Of a stretch of DNA of 64,000 nucleotides, positions 2,531 to 48,451 are shown in pieces. Origin of the DNA: an uncultured Verrucomicrobiota bacterium (GTDB taxonomy: Bacteria > Auribacterota > JABMQX01); assembly GCA_964640185.1 (NCBI GenBank), contig CAZXGF010000010.1, positions 162-64,161 of the forward strand, in the 5' to 3' direction. Position 1 is the stretch's first letter. Every line of letters starts with the position of its first letter. The notes below the pieces were generated by a model. The model had not been told where the DNA came from. It did not search any database and worked only from the letters and a program-made list of their open reading frames with translations. Both the position numbers and the translations under genes were made by a program.

Positions 2531-3009
2531 GAGCGAGTCGCCCGGAGCTTCCCTGTGGCCGCAGTCCCAGCAAACGCAGTGCCCGGATGGCACGCCTCCG
2601 AGAATGCGCGCCCGCAATCGCTGCTCAAGCGTCCGCGCTGCGCATCAATGATATTCGAGCCGTGACGAAGTGTGTTGTTTTGCTGTGCCCCGGTTCGCTG
2701 GAGACAAAGACGACCGTCCGGGCCCGCCGGACGTCTGCTCTCCTTAAACACGCCGCCTTTGCCGGTTTCGCCGCCCACGAAACGGGAAAGTTTCGGAACC
2801 GCTGTCTGGGGTAATGCCTCAGTTACCGGCGGCTGAGGTTCGGACCTCATAGGACGCAGAGTAGCCCTTGTGCCGGTGGCATCCTGCCCCCGCCCCGCGT
2901 TCCGCGGGGGACGCCCTCGGGGCAGCGTTACATAGACCGCAACACTGAGCTGCACCTGGCAATCAAGCGCCAGACGCCCAGGGAACGACAGCCCCGCCAT
3001 GGCGGGGTG

Positions 3010-3117
3010 TCCTTCTCACCTTATTCTCTGCGCCTTTGCGCCTTTGCGTTAATCTGCTGTTCCCTTCTTGCCTCCTCCGGCTCGGCCGGCTATCCGCCCG
3101 AGACTGAGGGATTACTA
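3010..3117 (+). repeat. ~80-nt conserved module M1 (same family as 35433-35546), preceded by 16-bp palindrome CCCCGCCATGGCGGGG (2990-3005)
   Basis: Direct alignment with M2; lies just upstream of the sigma70-like promoter at 3135. Confidence 0.8.
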
Positions 3118-8079: not shown

Positions 8080-10968
8080 ATGAAGAAAAGCGCCAAAACG
8101 CGATATTTCGCGATTGCAATCCTCATTTTCGCCGCGTGCGTGCTCGTCATCACCTTCCGCGCTTGGGCGCCGCAACGGCAGCGGCCCTCCTACTTCATGG
8201 GCGTGCGAGTATGCTTTCCATGCCACGGAGGAAGCAAAAATTGCGACCAATACAGCCTCTGGCGACTCTCCGAGCACGCCAAGGCTTATGCGGCGTTGAG
8301 TTCCCCGGAGGCTTTCGAGATCGCCGAGATTTCAGGTGTGGACATTGACCCGAGGAAAAGCCCTATTTGCTTAGGATGTCACGCAACCGCCTCCAGCGCT
8401 GAGCCGTGGCAACTGGACCCCACATTTCATCGAGAGGACGGCGTCCAGTGCGAGGTCTGCCACGGGCCGGCGAGCAATCACGTGGAAGCCTTGCGGAGCG
8501 GAAAACCTTCCCGTCAGTCCATGCTTCCTATCCCGACCCCGGACGATTGCATGGTTTGCCATCGGCATAAGGATACTCACAAGAAGGTGCTCAACACCGA
8601 AGAGTTCGACTACCAGGAAGCTCTCAAGCAAATCTCTCACGCCGGCAGCCCCGCCGCGGGCGGGGTCATGCGCCCGTCGGTCACACCCCCCTCCGCGAAG
8701 ACCAATCCGCGCCTCGTGGGGGTCAGGATGTGCTCGCAATGCCATTCCGAGGTGGAGAAGGGGGACCAGTTCGCCATGTGGGTGCAGTCAGCGCACGCCC
8801 AATCTTACGCCGTTCTCGCAACTTCCCGTGGCTGGGAAGCAGCCGCAAAGCTCGGGCTTCAAGGCAGTCCCCAGGGCAAAACCGAATGCCTTCGCTGCCA
8901 CGCAACCGGTTTCAGCAATAAGCCTTCGAGTTTCGCGGAGTCTTTCCAGGCGGAGGAAGGCGTGCAGTGCGAGTCGTGCCACGGCCCGGGAAGCGATTAC
9001 TCGAAAGAGCGCATTATGCGAGACAAGGAGGCGGCAGTAGCCGCCGGGCTTGTTATTCCGAACGAAAAAACATGCCTCGCTTGCCACAGCGGGGAATGTC
9101 CCGCGGCGCCCGAAAAGTTTGATTATGCGGCCGCCTTGAAGACAATTGAGCACCCCCGCAAGTCCCTCAGGCCCCACTCTGTTTCCATCGAGTACAAGAC
9201 GCCATTCAACTTGATCCTTTCGAAAGATGGCCGACTCGCTTACATCACCTGCGAAGGGTCCGACTCTCTGGCGATTGCCGACCTCGAAAGCCGAAAGGTC
9301 ATAGCCGAGCTCAAGGTCGGCCACCAGCCGCACGGCGTCTGCCTGAATCCCTCGGAAACCGTGGCGTACGTTTCCAACCGTGGCTCTGACACGGTTTCCG
9401 TCGTGGACCTCAACACGAACAAGGTCACGTCAACCATTGTCGTCGGGGACGAGCCTCACGGCATCATCACCGACACCAGCGGGGAAACCGTTTACGTAGT
9501 CAACGCGGGCACGAGTGACATTTCTGTGATTGACGCCCGTAAACGAACGGAAATCAAGCGGCTCGCGGCCGGGCGTGGTCCCTGGGCGATTGACCGCTCG
9601 CCCAACGGAGAATTGCTTTACGTAACCAACAATCTATCGCATTTCGTTAAGTTCCGGACTCCCTCCCTGTCGGAAGTGACCGTCATTGACATCGAAAAGA
9701 AGCAGATAGTCAACCGGATATGGGTGCGGGAAGCCAATCTTGTTCAGGGAATTGACTTCTCGCCCGATGGCGAGTTCGCCCTGGTGACCTTGCTACGAAC
9801 GAAGAACCTCGTCCCGGTGGTGCGTGTGGCGCAGGGCTGGGTTATCACAAACGGCCTCGGTATCCTCTGGAAGGACGGCCGCGTTGACCAGGTTCTCCTT
9901 GACGAGCCAAATGCCTCCTTCGCCGACCCGACAGATGTCATTATCACTCCCGACGGCAGATTCGCTTACGTGACCGGAGGCGGCGTTGACGCGGTCGCCG
10001 TCGTGGATTTGCCGAAGCTTTTCAGCATTCTGAAACGCGCGAGCGATGAAGCGCGCTCGAGGATAATGCCCAATCACCTCGGCTACGCCACCGAGTTCGT
10101 TGTCCGGCGAATCGCAACCGGCAGGAATCCGCGAGGCCTGGCCATCTCGCCCGATGGAAAACTGGTGTATGTCGCCGCCGGGCTCGATGACGCCATCACC
10201 ATAATAAACACAGATAGGCAGGAAGTCGTCGGCGCCATTGACCTCCGCGGGCCGAAAGAGATCACCCAAACGCGGTTCGGCGAGAGGGTCTTCCACAGCG
10301 CGGAAGTGACCTTCCAGAGGCAGTTCTCCTGCCATTCCTGCCACCCCGACGGAAACGTGGACGGCCTGACCTACGACCTCGAGCCGGACGGCATCGGGGT
10401 CAATCCCGTGGATAACCGAACGCTCCGAGGCATTCTTGACACCGCTCCCTTCAAGTGGACCGGTAAGAATCCTTCCCTGAGCCGCCAGTGCGGCGCGAGA
10501 TTGGCGGTCTTCTTTACGCGAATTGACCCCTTCACGCCGAAGGAGCTTGCAGCTCTCGATCGCTACATCACAACGATTCCCCGTCCGCCAAACCGCTATC
10601 GGCACCCGGAAGGTCTCACCCCCGCGCAGTCTCGCGGAAAAGCCCTCTTCGAGCGCACCGTCACTAACGATAGCAGACCGATCCCTCCGGAAGGGCGCTG
10701 CATCTTCTGCCATCCCTCTCCCTACTACACGAACTGCCGAAGCATGGATGTCGGCACTAAATCGTGGTTGGATGACCATCACCACGATTTGCTCGATGTC
10801 CCGCACCTCAACAATATCTACGAAACGCCGCCGTTTCTGCACGACGGGCGGGCTGAAACCCTCGAAGAGATTTGGACGACCTTCAACGACGAAGATAAGC
10901 ATGGCTTCGTCAACGATATGACAAAGGACCAACTGAACGATCTGGTCGAGTATATCAAAAGCCTGTGA
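8080..10968 (+). CDS. deca-heme c-type cytochrome fused to YVTN-type beta-propeller and di-heme cytochrome-c-peroxidase-like domain
   Basis: Ten CxxCH motifs (CFPCH, CLGCH, CEVCH, CMVCH, CSQCH, CLRCH, CESCH, CLACH, CHSCH, CIFCH); YVTN repeats (AYVSNRGSDTVSVVD, VYVVNAGTSDISVID). C-terminal region is homologous to 27355-29202; N-terminal TM/signal. Confidence 0.8.
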   Translation: MKKSAKTRYFAIAILIFAACVLVITFRAWAPQRQRPSYFMGVRVCFPCHGGSKNCDQYSLWRLSEHAKAYAALSSPEAFEIAEISGVDIDPRKSPICLGCHATASSAEPWQLDPTFHREDGVQCEVCHGPASNHVEALRSGKPSRQSMLPIPTPDDCMVCHRHKDTHKKVLNTEEFDYQEALKQISHAGSPAAGGVMRPSVTPPSAKTNPRLVGVRMCSQCHSEVEKGDQFAMWVQSAHAQSYAVLATSRGWEAAAKLGLQGSPQGKTECLRCHATGFSNKPSSFAESFQAEEGVQCESCHGPGSDYSKERIMRDKEAAVAAGLVIPNEKTCLACHSGECPAAPEKFDYAAALKTIEHPRKSLRPHSVSIEYKTPFNLILSKDGRLAYITCEGSDSLAIADLESRKVIAELKVGHQPHGVCLNPSETVAYVSNRGSDTVSVVDLNTNKVTSTIVVGDEPHGIITDTSGETVYVVNAGTSDISVIDARKRTEIKRLAAGRGPWAIDRSPNGELLYVTNNLSHFVKFRTPSLSEVTVIDIEKKQIVNRIWVREANLVQGIDFSPDGEFALVTLLRTKNLVPVVRVAQGWVITNGLGILWKDGRVDQVLLDEPNASFADPTDVIITPDGRFAYVTGGGVDAVAVVDLPKLFSILKRASDEARSRIMPNHLGYATEFVVRRIATGRNPRGLAISPDGKLVYVAAGLDDAITIINTDRQEVVGAIDLRGPKEITQTRFGERVFHSAEVTFQRQFSCHSCHPDGNVDGLTYDLEPDGIGVNPVDNRTLRGILDTAPFKWTGKNPSLSRQCGARLAVFFTRIDPFTPKELAALDRYITTIPRPPNRYRHPEGLTPAQSRGKALFERTVTNDSRPIPPEGRCIFCHPSPYYTNCRSMDVGTKSWLDDHHHDLLDVPHLNNIYETPPFLHDGRAETLEEIWTTFNDEDKHGFVNDMTKDQLNDLVEYIKSL

Positions 10969-10982
10969 GGAGAGATGACGTT

Positions 10983-12182
10983 ATGAGCTCGTGGCAAAGC
11001 TTGTTTTGCGGGGTTGTTCTGGTGACAATGGCCGGGGTTCTTTGGGCGGCCGAATCTTTGCCGCAGGAGCCTCCGTCGCCGGGCATGCCCTTCGTTTACA
11101 AAAAGTGGGAGGTTTTCACGACCAAGAGCACGAAGGGTGAGCTTCCCAACGACCACATCTTTTTTGTCAGGGTGGACGGCGACCGCGTATGGATCGGCAC
11201 GGAGAATGGGCTTGCCTGCTACGTGGGCGGAAAACTCAAGCAGTGGGGCGAGAAGGATGGCCTGCCCTGGCACGTCGTCTCTGCGATAGACGTCAGCCCC
11301 CTCACAGGAGACGTGTGGCTGGGTTTGTTCGGCGGCGGATTGGCTCGGTTCAGCGGGGGGCGCTTCGACCATTTCCACCAGCTCAACAGCGGCCTGGTCA
11401 ACGATGTTGTTTACGGCGTGGCGGTGCAAGACCACGTGATATGGGTCGCCACCACCGCAGGCGTCAGCTCCTACGACACAGTCACCGGCGAATGGGGCAT
11501 CTACACGGAAAAGAACGCCCCCATGGAAGAGATTTGGTGTTACAGCATCTGCTACGCCGATGGCAAGATTTACGTGGCGGTGTGGGGCGGAGGAGTGCTC
11601 GAGTGGGACGTCAAGTTGAAGCGCTGGAAAGCCTACATTGACCCGGACCGCGAGATGGAAATTGACCTCTACCGCGACGATGGGCTTGTTCACATCATCA
11701 CCACGTCTGTTGCCTACGAATCGGGTATCTTATGGGCCGCGACCTACTTCGGCCTGAGCCGCTATGACGGGAGGCACTGGCGAGGATACATGGAGCATGA
11801 GAGCGGCCTGGCGAGTGATTTCATCAACTTCAACAAGGCGAGAGGAAAGGAAGGTTGGATTTGCACCGATAAGGGGCTGTCGGTTTTGGTTGACTTCCCC
11901 ACGGACACCTGGGTAACATATAAAAAGAACGAAGAAAACGACGACGGCGTTGCTATCATCCAGCGAGGAATGCACGTCATCAAGACTGCCCCTACGAAAG
12001 GGTCCATCCCTCAGAAGTTTGTGATGTGTGTTGATTTTCAGGGCGATGACGTTTGGGTTGGAACATCCAAGGGCCTTGCCCGCGGAATTGGCAAGGGACG
12101 CTGGGTGGGGCTGAAACAGAGCAAGCCTTTCGCCTCCAAACAGTTGGCGCCGGCACAGGGCTTGGCAAGGGAAAAACCATAG
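10983..12182 (+). CDS. secreted two-component-regulator-propeller (Reg_prop) repeat protein
   Basis: GGAGAG RBS then ATG 10983; repeated VWIGTENGLACY / IWVATTAGVSSYD / ILWAATYFGLSRYDG / VWVGTSKGLARG blocks. Confidence 0.6.
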   Translation: MSSWQSLFCGVVLVTMAGVLWAAESLPQEPPSPGMPFVYKKWEVFTTKSTKGELPNDHIFFVRVDGDRVWIGTENGLACYVGGKLKQWGEKDGLPWHVVSAIDVSPLTGDVWLGLFGGGLARFSGGRFDHFHQLNSGLVNDVVYGVAVQDHVIWVATTAGVSSYDTVTGEWGIYTEKNAPMEEIWCYSICYADGKIYVAVWGGGVLEWDVKLKRWKAYIDPDREMEIDLYRDDGLVHIITTSVAYESGILWAATYFGLSRYDGRHWRGYMEHESGLASDFINFNKARGKEGWICTDKGLSVLVDFPTDTWVTYKKNEENDDGVAIIQRGMHVIKTAPTKGSIPQKFVMCVDFQGDDVWVGTSKGLARGIGKGRWVGLKQSKPFASKQLAPAQGLAREKP

Positions 12183-16095: not shown

Positions 16096-16223
16096 CTACG
16101 CCCCTCCGTCTGCCAGACTATTCATTATCTGGGTTCCGTATAGCAGCCTTCTTCTGGCAGATGTACCGCATAATCGCCTACCTCGTCGCGTGACGCTCAT
16201 CATCTAACTATCGCATTCCGAGT

Positions 16224-16490
16224 GGGTGTGGCCGCGTCGCCGTGGCGTGTCCTCACGGCTCGTTTTGAACCTCTCCCGTCGCACGTTGACGCCGTGGATC
16301 TGTGCCCTCTGTCCCTCTATCATAGAAAGGAAAGGGCCACCGCCTCCTTTTCGCCCGCCCTCGGCGGGGGCCGCAGTCAGCCACCGGCTTTAGTCGGTGG
16401 TATGGATACGAGATTCTTCTCGTGGGAGCCGGCTTCAGCCCCGCCGAGGCGGGGCTTCTCGACCACAGGATTCATGCGAATTTCGCCACG
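16224..16490 (+). repeat. dispersed ~260-nt structured intergenic element, copy R1
   Basis: ~85% identical to 22263-22516 and to the reverse complement of 42845-43212. Conserved hairpin CCACCGGCTTTAGTCGGTGG; second hairpin has a compensatory extended stem (GCCCCGCC/GGCGGGGC). Confidence 0.8.
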
Positions 16491-16506
16491 CAGATACAGC
16501 CGCGCC

Positions 16507-17067
16507 CTATTCGCTGAGCTTGACGGCCGTCCCGTAAGCTAAAAGTTCAGACGCACTTGCCACAACACTCGTGGTCATATAGCGAACATTGATTATCGCG
16601 TCCGCCCCCATCTTTCCAGCCTGGGCGACCATCCTATTAGTAGCTGCTGCCCGAGCCCTTCGCATCATCTCTGTGTATTCAGTCAATTCGCCGCCGAGGA
16701 TCAACCGGACTATGGCGGATAGGTCTTTGCCAAGCCAGATAGCAAATACCGTCTGGCCCTGGACGAGACCGAGAATCTCCGTGATCTCTCGGCCAGGTAT
16801 TTCTGCCGAATTCATCAGCAAAACCGTGCGGTCGAACTCAGTGGGCAGCGGCCCCTCTCCTGATGCCTTCTTTTTCCTTTGTTCGAGAGCCACTGTCAGC
16901 AGAACCACAAGGATACCCCCCAGAAGGCAGAAAATTGCCGTCCGGAGCCACCAGGGCACAGGCGCCGGATCATCGGCAACGACCACGTGCCACGGTATCC
17001 CAACAAATACTGCCGTGAACAGCCCGACCACGAACGCCAGCGACCCAATCTGTCGAATCGTTTTCAT
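16507..17067 (-). CDS. YbjQ/UPF0145 (DUF74) family protein with N-terminal TM helices
   Basis: ITEILGLVQG...GADAIINVRYMTT...ELLAYGTAVKL core; RBS GGAGGAACT 5 nt before ATG. Confidence 0.7.
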   Translation of the reverse strand: MKTIRQIGSLAFVVGLFTAVFVGIPWHVVVADDPAPVPWWLRTAIFCLLGGILVVLLTVALEQRKKKASGEGPLPTEFDRTVLLMNSAEIPGREITEILGLVQGQTVFAIWLGKDLSAIVRLILGGELTEYTEMMRRARAAATNRMVAQAGKMGADAIINVRYMTTSVVASASELLAYGTAVKLSE

Positions 17068-17114
17068 AGTTCCTCCTTAGACCAGTAGAATCCGAAAAAT
17101 CTCAGCTAACCAGC
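17027..17114 (-). repeat. ybjQ 5' module copy A (RBS + first codons + upstream CAGCTAAC box), part of intact gene
   Basis: ~90% identical over ~80 bp to 18870-18949; diverged homolog at 20129-20290. Confidence 0.8.
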
Positions 17115-17181
17115 GAGCTGACCGCCGCAGCAGAACCTCCCGCGGCTTTTCAACCCCTAGGTTCAAGCCGTTGTTCCAAGT

Positions 17182-18672
17182 CTATCGCCACTTAAGGTTA
17201 CGCAAATCTTTTTCGACTTCACAAAGGAGTTTTGCTTGGACCACTACGAACTTCTCAGGGGCAGGGGTCGACGGAGTCGTCACTCCCGCGTACTTCTTGA
17301 AGCAAGTCGCGATCTTGGCACGCTTGGACTTCACCTTGCTCTTTTTGCCGTGGTCTACGTCGTGCTGCTCGGCAGTTCTCAATATGTTTACATCTGCAAA
17401 GCTTGCGGGCCAATCGCCCTGGAGTCGAGTTCCCACACTCTCCCGAAAAACGAAGTACAGTCCGTCAATCCAGTCTCGGTATCCCGTGTAGTTCTTAATG
17501 CACTGACCAATGTTCGCGAGCGCATTTGCGGTCTTGCTCGTGGCCCTAAACAGGTCTTCGCGCTTTTCTCCTGCGTACTCCTCATTTCGCTGCTCAACAA
17601 GATTACGAATGCGCCTGGCACGTTCAGCGAGGGACTTGTGGATCGCGCTCTCTGCGACGACGCTGACGCCTAGGATGTCAACAAAAGTAGGATCGTAAGC
17701 CAGAAGTTTGCCCAGGAGTATTTCGTTACGGATCTGTGCACCGCGACGGATGTTGGCGTTGACTGTTTTCTGGAAGGCCAGGTATTCAGGATCAGTGGCT
17801 TTCTGCCCCAGGGTAACTTGCCTCGAGAGTTCTTCCATGAAGAACTCAAAAAATTGCCTCAGCCGTTTCGCTGTTCCTTTGTGCTTACCTCTCTGAATGA
17901 CGCGCGACACCAACGTGGCGAATGATTGGACGATCGTGCGTTTTCGGAGTATACGACTCGCCGTTGGAAACACGTCGTCTAAGAAATTGAAGGTGGCGAC
18001 CAGCCTCTTTGCGGCTGTCGACTCCCCACTGAAACTTGCTTGGCTCAAAAATGTCGTGTTTAGGTCCTTGTAGCGAAGACTGGTTTCTATGCCCTCAATC
18101 TCAATCGCCGCAACCTTGGCGACTATATCGAAATGGCCGTACCGCTTATCAGTTGCGGTGACTTTCTCCTCGAAGAACTTGTGCGTTGACAGGTTCTTGC
18201 TGAAGTCTCGCAGCTTGCTTTGGACAGAATTAAGCTTCTCACTGCTTGTCAACGGGAGTCCTCCTTGGAGCCGCTGGAAGAACTCCTTCAACTCCTCTTC
18301 GTCAGCGTCACTGATTTCATCGAACTCGATCTCAAAGTCATCAAATAGGTCGGCCAGATGCTCCGGGAGACCCTTATAGTATTGCGCGCCGAATTCTTCT
18401 GCTGACGACGCGTTCAGCGCGAGTTCATTGTCGAAGAACTCGAACACCGCCACGAGTCGTTGTTGCCCGTCGACGACCTCGTACTCATTGGGCTGTGAAG
18501 AGGTTTTCAGGACATAGAATTTGGGCAACTTCCATCCGCGGAGGATCGAGTCGATAAGCAACTGCTTCTTGCTCTTTGGCCAGACCTTCTGGCGCTGCCA
18601 ATCTGGAATCTCGTACCGGTCCCGACGTTTGTATATTTTGTCCAGTGCCCTCTTTTCCGCTCGCATTTGCAT
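17182..18672 (-). CDS. DUF262 (ParB-like nuclease superfamily, GmrSD N-terminal domain) protein
   Basis: IPDWQRQKVW and VVDGQQRLVAVFEF hallmark motifs; AGGAGGT RBS 7 nt before ATG at 18672; C-terminal half unassigned. Confidence 0.75.
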   Translation of the reverse strand: MQMRAEKRALDKIYKRRDRYEIPDWQRQKVWPKSKKQLLIDSILRGWKLPKFYVLKTSSQPNEYEVVDGQQRLVAVFEFFDNELALNASSAEEFGAQYYKGLPEHLADLFDDFEIEFDEISDADEEELKEFFQRLQGGLPLTSSEKLNSVQSKLRDFSKNLSTHKFFEEKVTATDKRYGHFDIVAKVAAIEIEGIETSLRYKDLNTTFLSQASFSGESTAAKRLVATFNFLDDVFPTASRILRKRTIVQSFATLVSRVIQRGKHKGTAKRLRQFFEFFMEELSRQVTLGQKATDPEYLAFQKTVNANIRRGAQIRNEILLGKLLAYDPTFVDILGVSVVAESAIHKSLAERARRIRNLVEQRNEEYAGEKREDLFRATSKTANALANIGQCIKNYTGYRDWIDGLYFVFRESVGTRLQGDWPASFADVNILRTAEQHDVDHGKKSKVKSKRAKIATCFKKYAGVTTPSTPAPEKFVVVQAKLLCEVEKDLRNLKWR

Positions 18673-18869
18673 GAGATACCTCCTGTTGCGCCTGACGCTC
18701 CCAAAGATTGGCTCAGGGCCGCCTCGCACGCGGCGTGCAAGTGCAGCCGCTGCTTCCGTAGCATTGGCTCTTAGTCACAGGTCCAAGTGTACTCTTATGG
18801 TTTCGTCAAGGGACCCTGCCAGCCATTTCTCCGTCTTGGAAGGTTTCCCTAATAACCCGAGCACGGACC

Positions 18870-18949
18870 CCAGCGAGCCAATCTGTCGAATCGTTTTCAT
18901 AGTTCCTCCTTAGACCAGTAGAATCGGAAAGCCTCAGCTAACGGCGTGC
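18870..18949 (-). repeat. ybjQ 5' module copy B (hairpin, CAGCTAAC box, RBS, first 10 codons MKTIRQIGSL then diverges to a stop)
   Basis: Sequence identity with 17027-17114; upstream imperfect hairpin GAGCGGCGCGG..CCGCGTCCGGCTC at 18929-18966. Confidence 0.75.
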
Positions 18950-19007
18950 CGAGCGGCGCGGCCGTTAGCCCGCGTCCGGCTCCAGCGATGGTTTAGGGAT
19001 TCTACTT

Positions 19008-19640
19008 CTATTCCCCGATGATTCCAATGCTAATGATGGCGAACAGAACCAAGACTAAAGTACTCCAAAGGCCCAGGGGGCCAAGCATCCTTGTAGTCCT
19101 CTTATATGCGTCGTATTGTTCGCGAAATCTCATGCCAATGTCGTATTTCTCCTCAAGGACCGCTTGTACGATGTTGAGGCCCTGGACCAGGGGGAACATC
19201 AGCAGACCATCCAGGTTCCTCGTGATGAGTGGCAACCCCAGCGCGACCCAAACGATGCCCGTATAGATAGGATGCCTGAAATAGCGATAAGTCCCAGTTG
19301 TGAGTAGTCCTGCTTTTACGTCCCGCCCGCCAAGGGCTTTTCTCTTTGCGGCAGTGGTAACCGCCAGGGCGATTCCGGAAATAACTAAAGTAGAACCGAT
19401 CACCGGGAAACCGTAACGGACACTGGTGCTTCGCATAAAGGCGGCTGGAGGGATGCCGTCGCTGGCAGGCGGCAGGACAACTATAAGGTAGCAGAGAAGG
19501 TTATATGTTAGCACAGCCAGCAGATTGGCGATCTTGTTCTCAAGGATTCTCTGATATCTCCTGCGATCCCTGAGGAACCATGCGAAGACCCCGACGAGGG
19601 CTCCAAGCATTGCGAATAGGCTAAATCGAATGATCCACAT
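19008..19640 (-). CDS. isoprenylcysteine carboxyl methyltransferase (ICMT)/PEMT-family membrane methyltransferase
   Basis: Multi-TM; RHPIYTG motif plus downstream EE..L acidic patch typical of the ICMT family. Confidence 0.65.
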   Translation of the reverse strand: MWIIRFSLFAMLGALVGVFAWFLRDRRRYQRILENKIANLLAVLTYNLLCYLIVVLPPASDGIPPAAFMRSTSVRYGFPVIGSTLVISGIALAVTTAAKRKALGGRDVKAGLLTTGTYRYFRHPIYTGIVWVALGLPLITRNLDGLLMFPLVQGLNIVQAVLEEKYDIGMRFREQYDAYKRTTRMLGPLGLWSTLVLVLFAIISIGIIGE

Positions 19641-19680
19641 TGGGCTTTAGTGCATTCCCCCATACCTGCTTTGCCGATGC

Positions 19681-20085
19681 CTAACGCTGCGGCTTCTCCG
19701 CGCCCGCTGGAGCGACTTGCTGGGGTTTGGATTGTCTTTTGCGCTCAATCCATAAACTTGAAACGATTCCTGCCAACGAAAAGACGAAGATCGGAAGGAG
19801 ATCACTTGTAGTACGCTCGACATGATGGGCTGTTCCCAACGTTGTTACCCGAACGTAGAATTTTTCATCTTCAGACTTTTGATAGTCACCACTTTCCCCA
19901 ATCACTTGAGAGGCTGTCGCGACGGGTTCAACCTTTGCGGTGTAATGGGTTGGCTTCAAGACTCGATACTGAGCGTGATAGTGGACAAAACGCGCAAATA
20001 CCCATGTGCTAACAGTCCAAAAACAGATCATCGCAAAAATGACCAGAGGAAGCATGTGATAAAACCTCTCTTGCTGCCTTTTCAT
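19681..20085 (-). CDS. small membrane protein, hypothetical
   Basis: Two predicted TM segments flanking a polar core; no motif recognised. Confidence 0.4.
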   Translation of the reverse strand: MKRQQERFYHMLPLVIFAMICFWTVSTWVFARFVHYHAQYRVLKPTHYTAKVEPVATASQVIGESGDYQKSEDEKFYVRVTTLGTAHHVERTTSDLLPIFVFSLAGIVSSLWIERKRQSKPQQVAPAGAEKPQR

Positions 20086-20128
20086 GCCTGTCTCCTTTCA
20101 TTGCCGAACTATTGATTATCCTGAGCTG

Positions 20129-20242
20129 TCAGGCCACGGCCGGATCATCGGCAACCATCACGTGCCACGGGATCCCGGCAAATACTGCTGTGAAGAGCCC
20201 CAACACGAACGCCACCGAGCCAATTTGTCAAAGTATTTTCAT
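20129..20242 (-). pseudogene. ybjQ-like N-terminal gene fragment (copy C of the 5' module) with in-frame TGA at codon 5
   Basis: Translates MKIL*QIGSVAFVLGLFTAVFAGIPWHVMVADDP, versus MKTIRQIGSLAFVVGLFTAVFVGIPWHVVVADDP in the intact gene at 16507-17067. Confidence 0.7.
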
Positions 20243-20304
20243 AGCGCCTGCTTAGGCAACTAAAATCCAAAATGTCAGCTAACGACATAGCTCAGCGGCG
20301 CGCC

Positions 20305-21702
20305 TTATTGCGCGTCCGGTGGAGCGTTGTGTTGGGTGGAAGAATCGTCTCTTTCCCGAGCCGACAGTACTTTCAGCGCACCCTCGCATGCCTCCAGAAT
20401 CTGTGGGCTCTTGTAGTTGATCGCCTTCCATCGTCGTTGTGTCTCTTCGATTACGCTCCTGGTTCTGGGATCCCCGATACGCAGAAATGCGTAGACAGCC
20501 GCATAAGTCTCGCAGTACGCCCGCATATTGGCCCCGGACTTGTACGCATGCTTGCTCTCCCAATCAGGTTTAGCCATCTGCTGCTTCCAATGCTCGTTGT
20601 GTTTGTTCAACAGATCAATAAGAAAGGGCACAGCGCTCTCGCACCGGATCTCGCCTAAGAGATGTATAACACGCCTCCTGAGGAAGTCGCGCAGACTGAC
20701 TTTGGCTCCTTCGATATGTGAAGCAAGCTCGGCGCTGTCTAAATCGAGCCCTTGGTCTTTCCATTCTCTCTGGAGCTTGCGTTTGGTATTCTCGTACAAC
20801 GCGTTGAGATGAGGGGTGGCGAGTCGTTGCTCTGATCCGGGTCCATCTTTGAGTCCCTTGCGTCTCAGGATGTCCTGGTCAGTTTCCTCAAAAAGTTTGA
20901 TAAGCTCAGGGCATGCAGCATCACCACATGCCACAAGGCCATCTCTGGGTTCGTTTTTCATCCCCCACTGAAAAGATTCTATGAAGTATGGAAGCAATCT
21001 CACAACTCTGGTTTTGGGGTCACGGATCCTGAGCAGGCGTTGGAGTTTTAGATGATCCAGGTACCGCTGGGCACGCTCCTCTATGGCAACGTTCTTTTCC
21101 AGTTGCTGTCTGACAGCCGCTTCCGGATCTTCGGCTAAGTACGCCAAGAAGTAGCTTTTCAGAGACAGCGGTTGGATATCCTGCGGGTCTATGATCCCCA
21201 ACATTTGGGTATTTGAACGCTCGCTTCCCCAACGGTCAGTGCGTTTGCGGAGGAACCAGAGATTGTCTTCCCGTGCGTCCTTCAAAAGAGGCTCACAACT
21301 GAACGAACTGTTACCAGTGTCGAGTATGTAGATTGGGCCTGTCGGGGCGTGTTTCCGGCCCTTCTGCTCTTGAGGTCTGAAACCGTGTCCCCAGTATTTC
21401 CCGCCCACGCGGGGATCGAGGCCATAATGAATAATGATCATGATCTCCTTCTTGTGACATGTTCCCTTTATGACCTCAGTGATGACCAGCCTCGCGTGAT
21501 GTTCCCAGCTTATCCCCTCTTGTCGTTTCCGCTTGTGGGAAACATACTTGATGGAGCGTTCCTTCAAGTGCCCCACAACCATCAGTTCAGCCCGTTCCAC
21601 TACCGTCGCATCCTCGTATCTCGGTCGTAGCTCCGCGTTAGCGGTACTCGAACAGGCAATAAGCATCGGGAGAAACATCGCCAATCTTTTTGCAAGGGTC
21701 AT
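20305..21702 (-). CDS. lipoprotein, hypothetical (lipobox LIAC)
   Basis: GGAGAAAAG RBS; MTLAKRLAMFLPMLIACSS signal/lipobox. Start ATG overlaps the HicB-like stop (ATGA), implying translational coupling. Confidence 0.55.
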   Translation of the reverse strand: MTLAKRLAMFLPMLIACSSTANAELRPRYEDATVVERAELMVVGHLKERSIKYVSHKRKRQEGISWEHHARLVITEVIKGTCHKKEIMIIIHYGLDPRVGGKYWGHGFRPQEQKGRKHAPTGPIYILDTGNSSFSCEPLLKDAREDNLWFLRKRTDRWGSERSNTQMLGIIDPQDIQPLSLKSYFLAYLAEDPEAAVRQQLEKNVAIEERAQRYLDHLKLQRLLRIRDPKTRVVRLLPYFIESFQWGMKNEPRDGLVACGDAACPELIKLFEETDQDILRRKGLKDGPGSEQRLATPHLNALYENTKRKLQREWKDQGLDLDSAELASHIEGAKVSLRDFLRRRVIHLLGEIRCESAVPFLIDLLNKHNEHWKQQMAKPDWESKHAYKSGANMRAYCETYAAVYAFLRIGDPRTRSVIEETQRRWKAINYKSPQILEACEGALKVLSARERDDSSTQHNAPPDAQ

Positions 21703-21974
21703 CGTCTTTTCTCCGCACAACAATGATTATCTTGTTCCGTATAACGTCCCAAGTCGGGACGTTTTGCAGTATAAGACGCCGGCAAATCATGGCAAGAGTC
21801 GCACGCAAGCCGTTGGTTTTCAGTGGCTTGCATCATCGTCTTGCATTCCGCTTTGAGGCTCTCGAGCAGTTCCTCTCGCGTTCTTTCCTGGCAGTTCACA
21901 CCCGGAATCTCCTCTATCCATCCAATCCACCAATCTCCGTCCTTTTGCGTTATGGCTGTGTATGAGTTTGGCAT
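21699..21974 (-). CDS. HicB-family antitoxin-like protein (UPF0150); no recognisable HicA partner
   Basis: YTAITQKDGDWWIGWIEEIPGVNCQERTREELLESLKEA resembles the HicB N-domain. Confidence 0.55.
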   Translation of the reverse strand: MPNSYTAITQKDGDWWIGWIEEIPGVNCQERTREELLESLKAECKTMMQATENQRLACDSCHDLPASYTAKRPDLGRYTEQDNHCCAEKRR

Positions 21975-22262
21975 CTGAACACTCGCTTTCCCTGCACAGA
22001 TCTACAAAGAGTCTATCTGTGTACAAACGCCCCCACGCTTGATTGACTGGATGGGCCCATATTGCTGCACTCTTGACGCCATTACGGCCAACACGTGGCA
22101 TCCCGCCTTTGGCGGGACCCGTGAACCGTCATGAGCAAGATGCCCATGCCACTGAGGGAAAAATGCTATTCCAGCTACTGATGATCATCCTGCCCCTTCT
22201 GAGTCTAAGAACCATGCTCCCACACAGCTCTCCGAGCTGTCAAGCACTGTCTGGCAAATGGG

Positions 22263-22516
22263 TGTGGCCGCGTCTCCGTGGCATCCTCCGACGCCTGGTT
22301 TTGAACGTGTCCCGCCTCACGTTGACGCGGTGGATATGTCCAGCCTTTCGCTCTGTCGCAGAACGGAGAACGCCAGGGTTTCCTTTTCGCGTGCCCTCAG
22401 CGGGCGCCGGACTTAGCCACCGGCTTTAGTCGGTGGTATCGGATACGGGTTTTTTCTCGTGAGAGCCGGCTTCGGCCGGGCTTCTCGACCAGAGGATTCA
22501 TCCGAATTTCGCCACG
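22263..22516 (+). repeat. dispersed ~260-nt structured intergenic element, copy R2
   Basis: Aligns end-to-end with R1; hairpin GCCGG-C-UUCG-G-CCGGC present here. Confidence 0.8.
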
Positions 22517-22836
22517 GGAATACGACCACAACCCCCTTGAATGCAAGTGGCGGCCGCACGTTTGGAGATAAGCACATTCGTGACCGTTCACGGCACAGTC
22601 ACGAGGAAAGTGTCGCGCGTCCAGGGTGAGGCGGCGAGGACCGAGTCCTTCTCATCTTTCTCTCTGCGCCCCTGCGCCTTTGCCTTACTCCCCTTTTCCC
22701 TCTAAAACCCTTCAAGAGCGAGAAAGACCGCCGCACCGCCCTCTCCATCTACCGCAAAGCCCGCCGAATCTACGCCGACATCGAAAAACGCGCCCTCGCC
22801 AGCGGCAAACAGCCGGATTCGAAAACCCGCGTTCTA

Positions 22837-26203: not shown

Positions 26204-27354
26204 GCGGCAGCACGTCGCAAGATTTCCGCATGCTTGCTCGGATGATAGCCTCGCCCTATCCGCTTGTCAACGTGCACGGCCCTGAAGATGTGGCTGTGTT
26301 TCGCTGCCATGCCAGGTGGCTTTCCTTGTTTGAAACGACCTGAGCTGCAACGTTATGGGCGTCCACGGACGGCCTTGACACCGAAGCGGCGTCAGCGCAG
26401 CGCGGGCGGAAAGCCTCATTTATACGTAGTTTTGACGCAAATAGTGCCTTTTTTTCGCGCGTAATTCATTGTTACAGAAGGAAATGCAACCCGGCCTTTA
26501 ACCCCGAAAAGGGGCGAAAACTCCAGTAAATTCCAGTAGTCTCTCGACGAGAGGGCATACTGGAATGCCCGCTTTTCGGAAGGCTGGATCGGTTACGGTT
26601 GCGACTGCCATTCTTTTGGCACATTCATATCACAATTGCTGCCATTTGTCAAGAAGGGGGAATCTCGGTGGGTAACGCATCAGTCTCGGGGGGAGAGGAA
26701 CTCACCGCAGAGAGCGCAGAGGGCGCGGAGAAAATATTTACCCATCTTCGATGGACGCACAGGACAGCCCCATGGGCGGCTGACGAGCCTCGGGGGAGTT
26801 CCGTTTTCCTTTTTGGCCAGCGCCCGTCACTGTGTGCTCTGAAGGAACAATGATAGCGCGTGGCTCGGATCTGACGAAGCGCCCTCGTGGCATCTCGGCG
26901 GAGGTCCCGCGGAACGCGGGATGAACACTCATGGGCAAGATGCCCATGCTACGTCCCTCTACGTGCTCTGCGCACTCTGCGGTTTCACCCTTAGCCACCG
27001 GTAAGTGAGGGGTTACCTCGATGGGGCCGTATTTGCGTGGGATAATTCTCGCAGCCTGCAACGGCAGCACTCCTGCCGGTGAAAGTCCGGCGACGGTATC
27101 TGCCCGATGATGCCGTGTAGTCATACCCGACTCAGGGCAAGGGGGACCTTTCCCGGGGAAAGCTCGGGTGTAGAACCTCCATAAGCGGTGAAGAGCCGTG
27201 AAGTGGGAAGGAGCTGCCAGGAGAGGCGGCTCGGGCTGTAGTAGCGAAGATGCGGGTGGACAACATAACCCCCGCGGAGGGAAGGGCCTGTGGGCTCGGG
27301 GTGCTTGTGAGCTCCGGAAAGGGCTGTGCGTAGTGCCCTGTGGAGGCTAATCGC

Positions 27355-35144: not shown

Positions 35145-35432
35145 AGTGGCCTCTTTTTCTATCGTGCTGTCAAGAGCCGGGAAAGGCAGGAAAACCGTTT
35201 CCCGCGTGCGAGGGCTATATTGGCTATTTTCGCCTGGAGGGAGGGCAAAGTCAAGCGCTTCCCGGAAGAAGGGTGCGGCTGTGTTTCGGTGGGAAGGAAA
35301 GGGGGGAGAAACCTTAACGCAGAGACGCAGAGAGGGGCTGAATGGCAAAAGCCGGACCACTCCTTTGTGGCGCGGGCGTCTCGCCCGTGAAGAATCATGG
35401 GCAAGATGCCCATGCCACGGGACAGGCGAGGA

Positions 35433-35546
35433 CGGACTCCTTCTCATTCTTCTTCTCTCTGCGACTCTGCGCCTTTGCGTTAATCTGCTGTTCCCTTCTT
35501 GCCTCCTCCAGCTCGGCCAGCTATCCGCCCGAGACTGAAGGGTTAC
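35433..35546 (+). repeat. ~80-nt conserved module M2 (GCGCCTTTGCGTTAATCTGCTGTTCCCTTCTTGCCTCCTCC...CCGCCCGAGACTGA)
   Basis: Differs from 3033-3117 by three transitions over ~80 nt; preceded by hairpin CATGGGCAAGATGCCCATG at 35395-35413. Confidence 0.8.
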
Positions 35547-41449: not shown

Positions 41450-41468
41450 ACTGTACTCCCGCGAGAAT

Positions 41469-41487
41469 CATGGGCAAGATGCTCATG
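41469..41487. promoter_or_regulatory. hairpin/palindrome CATGGGCAAGATGCTCATG, 20 nt upstream of the pectate lyase start codon
   Basis: Same 8-bp-stem palindrome at 22130-22148, 26930-26948 and 35395-35413. Confidence 0.5.
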
Positions 41488-41521
41488 CCACGGCGAACTC
41501 TTGCAGAGGCGGCGGACACGT

Positions 41522-42568: not shown

Positions 42569-42844
42569 TGCGCGCTCCTTTCTTTCCGCTCAACCGGAAT
42601 TTCACGTTTTTGCGGGCAGCTTTTATACATGGAGGTTGTCGCAACATTCACCCGGCGAGGAACGATGAGCCGAGTCTCTCCCGAGCAGCCCACTCTACCC
42701 AAGAGTATGGTGCATTCGCTCTCGAAAGTCGAGCTATTTGATGAATCGGGAAGATCCTGCCTCCGGGACGGCGTTACTCTTGCCAAACCTACCTACTGGA
42801 ATGCAAACCGGCGCCGTCAACAGGTGCGGCTATATTTGCGAGGG

Positions 42845-43212
42845 GGAATTCGGATGAATCCTCCGGTCGAGAAGCCCGGCTAAAGCCGGCTCTCACGAGA
42901 ACAATCCCGAATCCGATACCACCGACTAAAGCCGGTGGCTAAGTACAACTGTTCGTAAATACGGCCACGTATTGTGGATTCAAAATCTGATATGTTTCAT
43001 GGCCTTTTGGTCATTGCAACATCCGAATACGTTACCGAGTTTATGAATCAGAACACTAAGCCCGGTGCCCGCTGGGGGCACGCGAAAAGGAAGCCGTGGC
43101 GTTTTCCGTTGTACGGTAAAGGGCCAAACTGAACGAATGCACAGCATCAACCTCGGGCAGGAGAGCTTCAAAACGAGGCGTCAGAGCATGCCAGCGACTG
43201 GCGGCCACACCC
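42845..43212 (-). repeat. dispersed ~260-nt structured element, copy R3 (reverse orientation), interrupted by a 112-bp insertion
   Basis: Reverse complement aligns with R1/R2 on both sides of the insertion at 42944-43055. Confidence 0.8.
42944..43055. mobile_element. 112-bp AT-richer insertion inside R3, flanked by 5-bp direct duplication CTAAG/CTTAG (MITE-like?)
   Basis: R2 has a single cttag at the homologous point; R3 has cttag-[112 bp]-cttag (42939-42943 and 43056-43060 on the plus strand). Confidence 0.55.
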
Positions 43213-45733: not shown

Positions 45734-45808
45734 GCGCCTGTAGCTCAGTTAGGATAGAGCACGGGATTCCTAATCCCGGTGTCGGAGGTTCAAATCCTCT
45801 CAGGCGCA
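45734..45808 (+). tRNA. tRNA-Arg (anticodon CCT)
   Basis: Cloverleaf by hand: acceptor GCGCCTG/CAGGCGC, D-arm GCTC..GAGC, anticodon arm CGGGA-TTCCTAA-TCCCG, T-arm GGAGG-TTCAAAT-CCTCT, discriminator A; 75 nt. Confidence 0.85.
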
Positions 45809-45931
45809 ATTGCTTATGACTTCCACTAACCCCACTGGGACGGTTTCGGGACGGTTTTTTCTTGACAAGACTCCCCCCTGTAATACGCTTCTCATAGTTG
45901 ACTAACCTCCAGTGGAGGCTCCGAAAGGACT

Positions 45932-46761
45932 GTGAGAAGGCGTCCCGATTCCCGCTTTTGGCACTATGATTTCTGGTATCGCGGGTGGCGGTATAAGGGT
46001 TCTACGAAGCAGACCTCCAAGGCCCGCGCGCAAGAATACGAAGCACACCAGCGCGAACTCGTCAGGGGAGGGTGGGAGCCGCATTTCACATCGCCCCACT
46101 TGAAAGACCTGCTCTCGCAATATATGGAGTGGCTTGAGGCGAACAACAAATCACCCGCGCACATAGACAGGGCACGGCGGGGATTGAGGAACGTTCTCAG
46201 TCGGATGAAACGGGTGAGGGTTGCCGAGGACATCAGGCCGAAGGAAATAGACGAGTATAAGAAGCAGCGCTTGGGGGAGTGTTCGCCCTTCACAGTCAAC
46301 ACGGAGCTTCGCTACTTGCGAGCCTTCCTCAAGCGTTGCGTTAAACAGGGCTGGTTACAATCCATGCCAGCGGAGATCGAGCAAGTAAGCACACCCCAGG
46401 TCAGGGGCGGGTCGTTTTCCTATCAGAGAGCGAAATAGGCCCCTTCCTTGCCCAGTTGAAGCCGTGGGCGCGGAGAGCGGCAGGCTTGATATTGCGGACA
46501 GGATTGCGGCTTGGCGAGGCGAGATTCCTTCAGTGGGAGGACGTTGACCTTGAGGCCGGCGAGCTATGGGTTCCCAAGAAGCCGGACTTGGGGTTCGCCC
46601 CTAAGAGCCGGAGGGAAAGGTGCATTGCGCTCCCCCCGAACTTAATAGAAGAACTCGCGGCCCGTAGAAAGCAAAAGGGTTGGGTGCTTCGCGGCCCCAG
46701 AGGTGAACCGGGAAAGGCGAGCCATTGTCAGGCGTGGCGAGTGAGACGGTTGACAGGGTGA
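45932..46761 (+). pseudogene. tyrosine recombinase (phage integrase) remnant: N-terminal SAM-like domain (45932-46438), frameshift, start of catalytic domain (46456-46761), truncated before H-R-Y
   Basis: LILRTGLRLGEARFLQWEDVDLEAGELWV box-I motif; the two ORFs are in different frames; located directly 3' of the tRNA. Confidence 0.7.
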
Positions 46762-46852: not shown

Positions 46853-47737
46853 TTATCGGGATGAAATTGAGGCATATTCCTGGGATTTCGCGCGATTGAT
46901 TGCCTTCTGTTCTTTTTCCTTCAGTTCCTCGATCATTCTTGCCAAGAACCGAGCGTCTATAGGTTCCTGACCTTTCGGTGTCTTTTCATATAGTCGTTTC
47001 ATCAGATGAAAGACACGTCTGCGCGTTTCCTCGGACATTGCACTGGTCGCAGCACTGAAAGAGCCGTAGTACTCTCTTATCTTCGCATTGATACATTCCA
47101 TTGCAAAGTAGGCTCGGCGTAGTTTTTCTATTGTGGAACCCAGCAAATGAGCGAGAGCGTTCACTTTGCTTTTCCCAGAAACAGAGAAAGAGATAAGAGG
47201 AACTTTTGTATCTTTTTCGGTGCGGTCATCGGCGAGATATTTCCAAATTCTGCAATTCTCTTCTGCTTCATATCGTATGTTAGAAAGTATAGCTTTCTCA
47301 CCCTCTGCTTTTTCCTTTTGCCGCTCCATTCTCGCCGCTTCAGCCTCATCTACCATACGCTTTGTGGAAGCAGCATATTCAAGGGTAACACTAATCAGGA
47401 CAATGATTGCAGATGCTTGGATCGCCTCCGGGAATTTCGCACCGAAGATGAGCGACAAGATGAACACCAAAAAGGCGACAGAGACACCGCAGCACAAAGC
47501 TCTATATCCGCTCCAAGACCGTTTGAGCCAAGCACCTATTCCCTTCGTAGCCTTTTGAAGGTTCTGTTTGTGTGGGCAACACATGATTTTCAGGCAAGGA
47601 TACCACAAGAGCCAAAGCGATCCCAGACCTTTTTTCTCCTCTGTGGGCAAGCGCGTAACCGCCCGCTTTCTCGGATGGCCGAAAGCATTGAGCATCCTTT
47701 GGGACACCATAATGCTTTCGCAAACGATGTACGGCAA
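46853..47737 (-). CDS. hypothetical membrane protein (AT-richer islet)
   Basis: ORF with two central TM helices; local GC clearly lower than surroundings. Confidence 0.4.
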   Translation of the reverse strand: MPYIVCESIMVSQRMLNAFGHPRKRAVTRLPTEEKKGLGSLWLLWYPCLKIMCCPHKQNLQKATKGIGAWLKRSWSGYRALCCGVSVAFLVFILSLIFGAKFPEAIQASAIIVLISVTLEYAASTKRMVDEAEAARMERQKEKAEGEKAILSNIRYEAEENCRIWKYLADDRTEKDTKVPLISFSVSGKSKVNALAHLLGSTIEKLRRAYFAMECINAKIREYYGSFSAATSAMSEETRRRVFHLMKRLYEKTPKGQEPIDARFLARMIEELKEKEQKAINRAKSQEYASISSR

Positions 47738-47847
47738 ATCTCAACGTTGATCTGGAGTTATTGCCCTGAGCAAGATCATTGACAGATATTGACAATGCAA
47801 GGTTCGCCACAGAAGAGATGATGCTCGCTCGCGCCGGGTCGCAGGAC

Positions 47848-48048
47848 TTAGTGTTCTGAATACACGATCAAGACTGCCAGGTTAGCTCCCCCGTATGGGC
47901 CTTCCCCGAAACCACCTTCACCATATCCTGGCCCTTTTTGAATATCAGACGCATATTCAATATGAAATACGTTTTCTGTGGACAGGAACTCATTCATGTT
48001 CTTCTCTAATTCAAGGATGTCATTCCCCATTACGAGCTTCGCCTTCAT
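47848..48048 (-). CDS. small hypothetical protein (66 aa)
   Basis: GAGGAGGG RBS 8 nt upstream of ATG; Gly-rich tail. Confidence 0.3.
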   Translation of the reverse strand: MKAKLVMGNDILELEKNMNEFLSTENVFHIEYASDIQKGPGYGEGGFGEGPYGGANLAVLIVYSEH

Positions 48049-48451
48049 CGTACTGCCCTCCTCTCTTTAGCTTGAAAGATATTTTTGCCACAGATGAGTT
48101 TACTTTCACAGGATTTTGTTCCCTACGCAAAAGAAAAAGCATTCTCCTATCCAGGGAAGCTGCTTGTGTTCCACAAGGGAAAAAGGAAGATTAAATCTCC
48201 CACTCCTCCGACATTTCACCTTTCTCTCCCTGTCAGACCTTTTCCGTGCCTTTCCGGTCAAGCTGTGTCGCTTGTGGATTGGCGGGGTGATACAAAAATT
48301 TCGGAACGATCAGGAATAAGAAGGTGTTCTAAAAATGCGGGAAAAAAATGGCAAAAAAAGAAAAAAAACTTGACAAAAAGCTGCTGGTATGCGATATGCT
48401 AACATCACATTTCATAAGAAAGAGGCCCCTTGTAAAGGGAGGAAACAGAAG

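Follow-up and report, generated by a model that had tools for sequence, protein, structure and literature searches.

Probable integron cassette array without a neighboring integrase, marked by repeated ybjQ cassette ends, in an uncultured Verrucomicrobiota bacterium

Results

We analyzed a stretch of 64,000 nucleotides ("the window", 64 kb) from an uncultured Verrucomicrobiota bacterium (NCBI GenBank assembly GCA_964640185.1, contig CAZXGF010000010.1, positions 162 to 64,161 of the forward strand), in which an intact ybjQ gene and two truncated copies of its 5' end ("stumps") alternate with other genes ("cargo"). All genes at 16.5-22 kb lie on the minus strand. They form a patch of about 5.8 kb whose GC content is 51-54% across 17-22 kb, compared with 56-60% in the flanks, and two copies, X1 and X2, of a 275-nt dispersed repeat bracket it. 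Read in gene orientation, the patch comprises five units: a 91-aa open reading frame (ORF) and a lipoprotein gene, followed by the site attC_C; ybjQ stump C and a gene for a 134-aa protein, followed by a degenerate site, attC*; an ICMT-like gene, followed by attC_B; ybjQ stump B and a DUF262 gene, followed by half a site, attC_A; and the intact ybjQ, with X1, which resembles a miniature inverted-repeat transposable element (MITE), at its stop codon. We consider it likely that the patch is a short, decayed array of integron cassettes with no neighboring integrase, that is, a CALIN (a group of attC sites that has no integron-integrase).

The preliminary description of this DNA had reported three copies of one module with different genes between them, and all three are present on the minus strand. 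Copy A (16507-17112) consists of a leader and the intact ORF (16507..17067), which encodes a 186-aa protein with an N-terminal transmembrane anchor (Pfam YbjQ_1, 1.3e-30); the 5' end of this unit (17068..17110) carries the R' core GTTAGCT at 17104-17110, the leader and a GGAGG ribosome-binding site. Copy B (~18851-18962) shares 86% identity with A over 109 nt; for copy C (~20117-20325) the identity to A is 80% over 165 nt. Within copy B, the stump proper (18851..18941) retains the leader, the ribosome-binding site and the first ~16 ybjQ codons, and reads through into a 41-aa ORF. Stump C (20117..20282), a pseudogene, retains the same elements and the first ~42 codons; the later premature TGA noted previously is there, and an earlier stop, created by a CGA to TGA change at codon 5, had been overlooked. 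Both stumps lack the 3' part of ybjQ, its 3' untranslated region (UTR) and its attC. When the 5' ends of 85 ybjQ copies from elsewhere were made into a profile, it matched copy C (E=6.6e-41) and copy B (E=3.5e-16) and nothing else in the window, so the module copies are not due to chance.

Copies B and C also share a hairpin-containing segment upstream, as had been noticed; it is ~55 nt long. Its earlier interpretation as a terminator does not hold, because the hairpins of B and C have no T-tract; by their sequence they are predicted to be canonical attC sites of the ybjQ-cassette family. Both are on the minus strand. attC_C (20274..20338) reads ACCCAAC-ACAAC-GCTC[C]AC-stem-GCTGAGC-TATGTC-GTTAGCT, where the bracketed base, here and below, is the extrahelical base of the L box; it scores 60 bits (E=1.6e-14) and overlaps the end of the lipoprotein ORF. 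attC_B (18933..19001), at the 3' end of the ICMT cassette, reads CCTAAAC-CATC-GCTG[G]AGC-stem-GCTCGGC-ACGCC-GTTAGCT and scores 51 bits (E=5.6e-12). The R'' and R' boxes of both are one or two bases off the consensus, R''(RYYYAAC) and R'(GTTRRRY).

These scores come from an attC covariance model that we built from nine aligned sites (five downstream of ybjQ elsewhere, the B and C sites of the window, and sites upstream of the copies in loci L024 and L056) and ran unfiltered over the 64 kb. The scan gave three matches, all on the minus strand and within 1.4 kb, and nothing comparable elsewhere in the window. The third, attC* (19676..19729), lies between the 134-aa and ICMT genes and is a weak match to a degenerate site (12.4 bits, E ~0.5), with an L'' box GCTCCAG and a perfect R' box GTTAGGC that overlaps the stop codon of the 134-aa ORF. 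The half site attC_A (17104..17135, minus strand) went undetected by the model; it consists of the 3' half only, CTGCGGCGGTCAGCTCGCTG|GTTAGCT, and can be aligned to the corresponding halves of attC_B and attC_C. The hairpins of B and C are homologous to the seven attC sites taken from elsewhere. In 79% of the cells of the alignment the bases pair as the R''-L''-stem-L'-R' layout proposes; sliding the partners by 1-3 columns lowers this to 22-41%, and six pairs are altered on both sides. A crude independent pattern scan also picked out attC_C. No Rfam family was found for the hairpins or for the X repeat, at either gathering or E-value thresholds.

The repeat seen initially is real, and the module proves to be composite: the attC of the preceding cassette joined to the 5' end of a ybjQ cassette. 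Its second part consists of a 45-nt leader, the ribosome-binding site and the N-terminal codons of the membrane-anchored YbjQ cassette. The "CAGCTAAC box" of the preliminary description is, on this reading, the R' core GTTAGCT viewed on the other strand. ATCAATA-GTTCGGC (20103-20109), which follows stump C, is a possible relic of that copy's own R'. A role of the leader as a sigma-70 promoter was considered and discarded: the three leaders contain no promoter-like match on the gene strand, and the nearby ones are on the opposite strand. Among copies elsewhere, those in L010, L014, L023, L030 and L044 have ~30-80 nt inserted between the leader GTTAGCTGAGATTTTGGAT and the ribosome-binding site, and the insert CCTTCGACGTTGCTCAGGACAAGTTTTAG is common to L010 and L014.

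The ybjQ gene is widespread. Searching 5.8 billion proteins yielded upwards of 120 clusters that are 80-89% identical to the YbjQ of the window, and a scan of species-representative genomes (one per species) returned 366 matching stretches. About 85 ybjQ loci, designated by L numbers, were compared. The metagenome-assembled genomes (MAGs) among the best 80 of the 366 are labeled Phycisphaerae, Pirellulales, Desulfobacterales, Nitrospiraceae, Anaerolineales, Brocadiia, KSB1, Aminicenantes, Bacteroidales, Omnitrophota and others, and the YbjQ unit occurs in MAGs of more than 10 phyla at 72-89% protein identity. Genomic context differs at nearly every locus. The DNA identity between copies (72-88%) is sharp-edged: in unrelated contexts, of which there are dozens, similarity begins at GTTAGCTGAG, ~45 nt before the ATG. 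Between the window ybjQ and copies in other phyla, dS is 0.24-0.4 and dN/dS is 0.15-0.3. The low dS, together with these ratios, indicates that the gene encodes a functional protein and has passed from phylum to phylum rather recently.

The downstream regions of full ybjQ copies in many other genomes carry canonical attC sites. In L012, for example, the site reads AGCTAAC-CAACG-GCT[C]AAGC-CGACCGCC-GCTTAGC-CGTGAC-GTTAGAT; similar sites follow ybjQ in L031, L037, L045 and L071, and L084 has a textbook site, GCCTAAC...GTTAGGC. A Desulfobacterales-type clade (L016, L032, L040, L042, L047, L048, L051 and L078) has a 59-nt attC after ybjQ, in which R'' AGCTAAC overlaps the TAA stop, L'' is TCTT[G]CAG, L' is CTGAAGA and R' is, for example, GTTAATC or GTTATGC; in this type the L and central helix is 89% paired. 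We take the attC layout and the central CGGACGC...GCGCCGCC stem to be like those of the classical aadA-type 59-base element, a likeness that served as a lead only and not as a test. Our first attC pattern scan was too strict, gave hardly more than shuffled sequence did, and was abandoned. With a looser attC score, 18 of 84 regions downstream of ybjQ were at or above the 95th percentile of controls.

The two ends of the ybjQ unit mirror one another. Its left boundary is GTTAGCTG, an exact match to which lies upstream of 16 of the 85 copies. A cassette linearized at the G|TT of its own attC must have an R'' that mirrors its 5' boundary, and reverse-complementing the R'' sequence CAGCTAAC gives exactly G|TTAGCTG, the 5' boundary of the unit. 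An exact CAGCTAAC occurs within 130 nt after the ybjQ stop in 10 of the 85 copies, with 0.004 expected per such stretch, and in L037 and L045 the inverted repeat of the unit ends extends to ~17 nt. Judged by these boundaries, the ybjQ unit is a predicted integron gene cassette starting at G|TTAGCTG.

The 3'UTR of ybjQ holds a further conserved feature. A ~50-nt motif, ATCGCCTTGCGGGAGGATATTGATATCTGTRAGATTGCAGCCTTA, lies between the ybjQ stop and the attC and is conserved across phyla; it is carried by L012, L037, L045, L084, L071, L031, L015, L019, L008, L059 and others, and is also present in the vertical clade described next.

Some ybjQ copies appear to be vertically inherited. About 15 loci of Pirellulales/Sedimentisphaerales type have conserved synteny, with a convergent tadA downstream of ybjQ and often a gene for an extracytoplasmic function (ECF) sigma factor and an anti-sigma-like gene upstream. 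Clustering of the ORFs around 84 ybjQ copies recovered this tadA clade and a loose association with ICMT genes only, and no recombinase. The ICMT/PEMT-like genes lie 0.6-2.5 kb downstream of ybjQ in the Desulfobacterales-type loci L032, L033, L048, L065 and L075 (and L026), and their products are ~27% identical to that of the ICMT-like cassette of the window. The ybjQ unit was not found in viral contigs, and its relatives on plasmids are all below 60% identity and cover 52-57% of the protein. None of the searched papers that mention YbjQ treats it as an integron cassette.

Stump C is 86% identical to the copies in L005 and L006 and 85% identical to that in L008, compared with 80% to copy A, which is outside the eight best matches of C in either coding segment. 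Stump C is therefore not a local duplicate of A, and its foreign ancestry means that at least two ybjQ cassette lineages entered the array. A segmental duplication of ybjQ that took place in situ long ago and then decayed, with hairpins present by chance and serving as terminators or as elements like repetitive extragenic palindromes, would account for the fact that A and B are mutual best matches over codons 1-15 (91%) and for the one terminator-like match, at 17102-17121. We nevertheless regard it as the least probable of the explanations considered, to the point of being barely credible: copy C is closer to its counterparts elsewhere (84-86%) than it is to A, sites homologous to the hairpins lie downstream of ybjQ in other phyla, the hairpins of B and C are without the T-tract of a terminator, and the GC content of the cargo is foreign.

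Cargo genes of several kinds lie between the copies, all on the minus strand and largely as first described. The DUF262 protein (17182..18675, 496 aa) has a ParB-like GmrSD_N domain. The ICMT-like gene (19008..19640) encodes a 210-aa membrane methyltransferase (Pfam PEMT 1.3e-7, ICMT 3.7e-5; NCBIfam matches are weak), and its neighbor (19681..20085) encodes a 134-aa membrane protein that has no family match. The 465-aa lipoprotein (20305..21702) has the lipobox LIAC and a Pfam HEAT_2 match of 1e-4 that is below the family cutoff. The 91-aa ORF (21699..21974) had been called an orphan HicB, a name for which the sole basis is a weak UPF0150/HicB resemblance (Pfam UPF0150, E=0.1); no hicA-like ORF was found upstream of it, and it does not form part of a HicAB pair. 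None of the other ~85 loci was found to hold relatives of the cargo genes close to ybjQ.

The closest relative of the DUF262 protein, in L095, is 78% identical in protein and 81% in DNA, and the DNA similarity spans 18749 to 17188 of the window. In L095 an attC from the same family as attC_B and attC_C, ...CGGACGCCGCATACGCGGCGC...GAGC-TCTTC-GTTATGC, comes after the homolog, and this indicates that the DUF262 cargo is cassette-borne too. The family is well conserved; its members are ~495 aa long, stand alone and occur in varied contexts, often beside toxin-antitoxin genes. The predicted structure is confident (pLDDT, the predicted local distance difference test, 87), with BrxU and SspE as the best structural matches. 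The DUF262 assignment holds for the N-terminal domain, which carries the DGQQR motif; membership of a nuclease family was not borne out, as profile searches against Pfam, NCBIfam and the Protein Data Bank found no DUF1524/HNH domain. The C-terminal half is all-helical, has an invariant QHDVDHG motif and has no assigned fold.

The DUF262 protein resembles a group of ParB-DUF262 defense proteins (GmrSD/BrxU, SspE, DndB and Menshen NsnA; PMC12065111) in its N-terminal DUF262 domain with DGQQR, and differs from them in having neither a DUF1524/HNH domain nor NsnB, NsnC, Dnd or Ssp neighbors. It does not belong with GmrSD or the type IV restriction systems, as it lacks the C-terminal DUF1524 His-Me nuclease domain. 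Its best PADLOC match is NsnA of Menshen, over residues 3-215 only, and the locus is not a Menshen (NsnABC) system: the next gene downstream is ybjQ, and there is no ATPase gene, NsnB or NsnC. By analogy with these proteins, and because defense cassettes have been reported in integrons (bioRxiv 10.1101/2024.07.02.601719), a role in defense is plausible.

A recombinase to move these cassettes was sought. The site-specific recombinase that was proposed to act on the module was not found in the window. A tblastn search with an approximate IntI1 sequence as query gave no match in the window or in the loci, and a scan for tyrosine recombinase motifs gave nothing. The sole integrase-like Pfam match is a truncated Int_N ORF (45932-46438) beside a tRNA-Arg gene, 29 kb from the patch. 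At 45734-46438 this tRNA-Arg(CCT) gene is followed directly by the truncated phage-integrase ORF, of 168 aa, and then, at 47000-53920, come a low-GC stretch (45-50%) and a gene for a 1084-aa SF1 (superfamily 1) helicase fused to a PLD-like (phospholipase D-like) nuclease domain; the region looks like a decayed tRNA-linked island with a defense-like gene.

The geometry of the patch, in which a displaced 5' end and cargo precede a restored gene, is also that expected if small integrative islands had accreted in tandem, with a tyrosine or serine recombinase targeting the 5' end of ybjQ and each element bringing a replacement. SXT does this at prfC, where the element brings a replacement 5' end for its target gene. 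The low GC of the patch fits such islands as well. We consider this explanation very improbable, since no recombinase gene lies in the patch, or in the window other than the distant Int_N fragment, the cargo units of 0.6-1.8 kb are too small for autonomy, and the extents of the duplications (~90 as opposed to ~165 nt) are unlike a fixed att core.

At its downstream end the array is interrupted by the X repeat. X1 (16223..16505) abuts the ybjQ stop codon and replaces the 3'UTR and attC of the cassette; X2 (22259..22523) lies 285 nt upstream of the array and is ~80% identical to X1; and a third copy, X3 (42823-43212), carries a 117-nt insert. The termini are inverted copies of GGGYGYGGC. In L005, whose ybjQ copies are the closest relatives of the window copy (89%), an X-like element (10559-11176) is found at the same position, directly after the ybjQ stop codon; it is flanked by a 9-bp duplication, AGCGAATAG, beyond which the normal ybjQ 3'UTR resumes. 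The inverted termini and the duplication indicate that X is a MITE-like element that landed on the stop codon of the cassette. In the window the ybjQ 3'UTR and attC beyond X1 have been lost. We considered X as a fragment of a group II intron or a non-coding RNA and set this aside: Rfam offered no support, and the inverted repeats and duplication point to a MITE.

The common ybjQ::X junction makes copy A and the second ybjQ copy of L005 counterparts. Upstream of this anchor L005 carries a 345-aa gene, an RraA-like gene, a gene for a 717-aa HEAT protein and another full ybjQ. The cargo is thus polymorphic in that it is entirely different upstream of ybjQ::X in L005; this variation is between lineages and not, as the check proposed earlier had it, among strains. 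No close relative genome was found for comparison of the locus, and L005 is the only one with the same anchor. The adjacent beta-lactamase-family hydrolase of the host has a best non-self homolog that is 65% identical, and when its gene was used in a metagenome scan for an empty site, the scan returned relatives at 35% only.

Contigs of the same population from other samples (L001, L002, L090 and L091-L094) end inside the array or inside X1. The breaks fall in the lipoprotein gene, the 134-aa gene or ybjQ, and repeat-induced breaks or strain heterogeneity are possible reasons. The window also contains two families of short dispersed intergenic repeats, one at 22118-22152, 26918-26952, 35384-35418 and 41457-41491, and the other at 3009-3115, 22645-22701 and 35440-35546; one of the two has the core CATGGGCAAGATGCCCATGCCAC, and one member of each is located just upstream of the array. 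Between 3400 and 6350, 7-nt repeats (AATCCGC / ATTTCGG and related forms) make up dense arrays within and beside a 1018-aa ORF whose product has a precomputed HZS_alpha (hydrazine synthase alpha-like) match; genes for a multi-haem cytochrome and FG-GAP/ASPIC proteins come next.

Discussion

The CALIN was defined by Cury et al. 2016 (PMC4889954) as at least two attCs on one strand, less than 4 kb apart, with no intI nearby. The two strong attCs of the window (20274-20338 and 18933-19001) are both on the minus strand and within that distance, and no integron integrase neighbors them. The array is like other CALINs in these respects, in that its cassettes are mostly of unknown function, and in that the attCs within it resemble one another. 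It differs from them in several ways: two of its cassettes are chimeric, with the stump of one joined to another gene; of its attCs, one is degenerate, another is a half-site and the terminal one is gone because of a MITE-like insertion; and the host appears to be a sediment bacterium of the PVC (Planctomycetes-Verrucomicrobia-Chlamydiae) group, not a proteobacterium. A CALIN is a known kind of element, found here in a poorly studied sediment lineage. The guess that the patch behaves as a cassette array is thus borne out in a specific form, that of integron gene cassettes bounded by attCs. The companion idea, that each insertion leaves behind a copy of its recipient site, is not, because integron recombination at G|TT duplicates no neighboring 5' end. 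It follows that the three copies are three cassettes, two of them truncated.

The array could have formed as follows. An IntI-type integrase, encoded elsewhere or since lost, would have delivered and shuffled the cassettes, with the folded bottom strands of attC sites as substrate and G|TT as the crossover point, and the abundant ybjQ cassette would have entered or been duplicated three times. The two upstream ybjQ copies would then have lost their 3' part and their own attC through a deletion running from inside the ORF to that attC, whether by recombination of the attC with a secondary site or by plain illegitimate recombination, and the deletion would have fused each stump to the following cassette. 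Such a deletion is the simplest account of the stumps and also the weakest step in the scheme.

Related events are known from other integrons. Excision between attC and nearby non-att genomic sites (attC x attG) is reported to alter the genome (Loot et al., bioRxiv 10.1101/2022.09.11.507474) and is the type of event that could make stumps, here known from sequence alone; the stump junctions of the window are not cleanly at GTT. Most ybjQ copies are single, are placed in unrelated chromosomal contexts and have a sharp left boundary at G|TT, like the single attC sites lacking integron-integrases (SALINs) of the same study. In mobile-integron cassettes with truncated or missing attC, described by Partridge et al. 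2009 according to PMC12901181, loss of an attC joins two cassettes into one, as it would have here. The present case differs in that most of the upstream ORF is also gone, with the leader, ribosome-binding site and N-terminal codons remaining, and in that it happened twice, both times with the same type of cassette.

Several observations weigh against the cassette-array interpretation. Neither the 64-kb window nor the DNA within 6 kb of the ~85 ybjQ loci yielded an integron integrase, whether intact or as a pseudogene. Only two attCs of the window are strong, the third being weak and the fourth half a site, and attC_B and attC_C are among the nine sequences on which the model was trained, so their scores, though not their homology to the seven other sites, are partly circular. 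In other ybjQ loci the covariance model found few extra attCs, from which it follows that most copies are solitary or have lost their attC. In a base-level alignment neither stump ends cleanly at GTT: the break in C lies 4 nt ahead of it and B has A, not G, before TT, and a clean integrase signature at these junctions was therefore rejected. The alternation of ybjQ cassettes with others needs several separate events. Finally, L038 and, weakly, L057 hold an intact copy that has a ybjQ 5' stump upstream and no detectable attC. In L038 (455-1740) the stump, at the ancestral position, is fused in frame to a 97-aa ORF, which is followed by a 304-aa ORF; in L057 (1180-2062) the ATG of ybjQ is overlapped by the stop of a gene for a 284-aa lipoprotein, whose ribosome-binding site and N-terminus resemble those of ybjQ. 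These stumps suggest that another process may also generate them.

The attC-free stumps keep alive an alternative that we judge unlikely, in which ybjQ, with a DNA identity of 75-88% across many sediment bacteria, acts as portable homology. Foreign DNA with a ybjQ 5' end and adjoining genes would be taken up when a circle integrates through one RecA-dependent crossover, or through illegitimate recombination that homology facilitates. An older 5' end would be moved upstream each time and the ORF left intact, and the attC-like hairpins would be passengers. This would explain why every stump, whether in the window, in L038 or in L057, is a 5' end with an intact copy downstream of it, and why the L038 stump sits beside the conserved upstream neighbor; the derivation of stump C from another lineage than copy A and the two full ybjQ copies of L005, which flank three genes, are in keeping with it. 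It leaves unexplained, however, why each junction has canonical attC architecture, why an attC follows the DUF262 homolog and why a degenerate one lies between the 134-aa and ICMT genes. Moreover, an identity of 80-86% between copies makes homologous recombination inefficient, the cargo genes are unlinked to ybjQ elsewhere, and there is no mosaic signal along copy A, the last being a result that is uninformative by itself.

A decayed CALIN remains the likely interpretation, and a repeat pattern that had been unexplained is now recognizable as an integrase-less array of integron cassettes. The array leaves the current understanding of integrons unchanged; what is noteworthy is the spread of the YbjQ cassette, the two stump-headed chimeric cassettes and the MITE at the stop codon. 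The window supplies natural examples of chimeric cassettes, and the stand-alone ParB-DUF262 protein joins the candidate defense genes that are carried as cassettes.

The YbjQ cassette is a natural marker for cassette traffic and for the insertion of solitary cassettes in the environment. As a speculation that we rate as rather improbable, it may be among the most widely disseminated integron cassettes of anoxic sediments, mostly solitary and outside integrons, and its 5' end may have been reused again and again as a portable head. The leader, ribosome-binding site and signal-anchor codons may serve the expression or anchoring of other genes, and chimeric cassettes made in this way would, to judge by their ends, stay mobilizable, as they still start at G|TT and end in an attC. 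The clade with ECF sigma, anti-sigma, ybjQ and tadA genes could be the chromosomal source from which the cassette was born. If true, these ideas bear on how cassettes originate.

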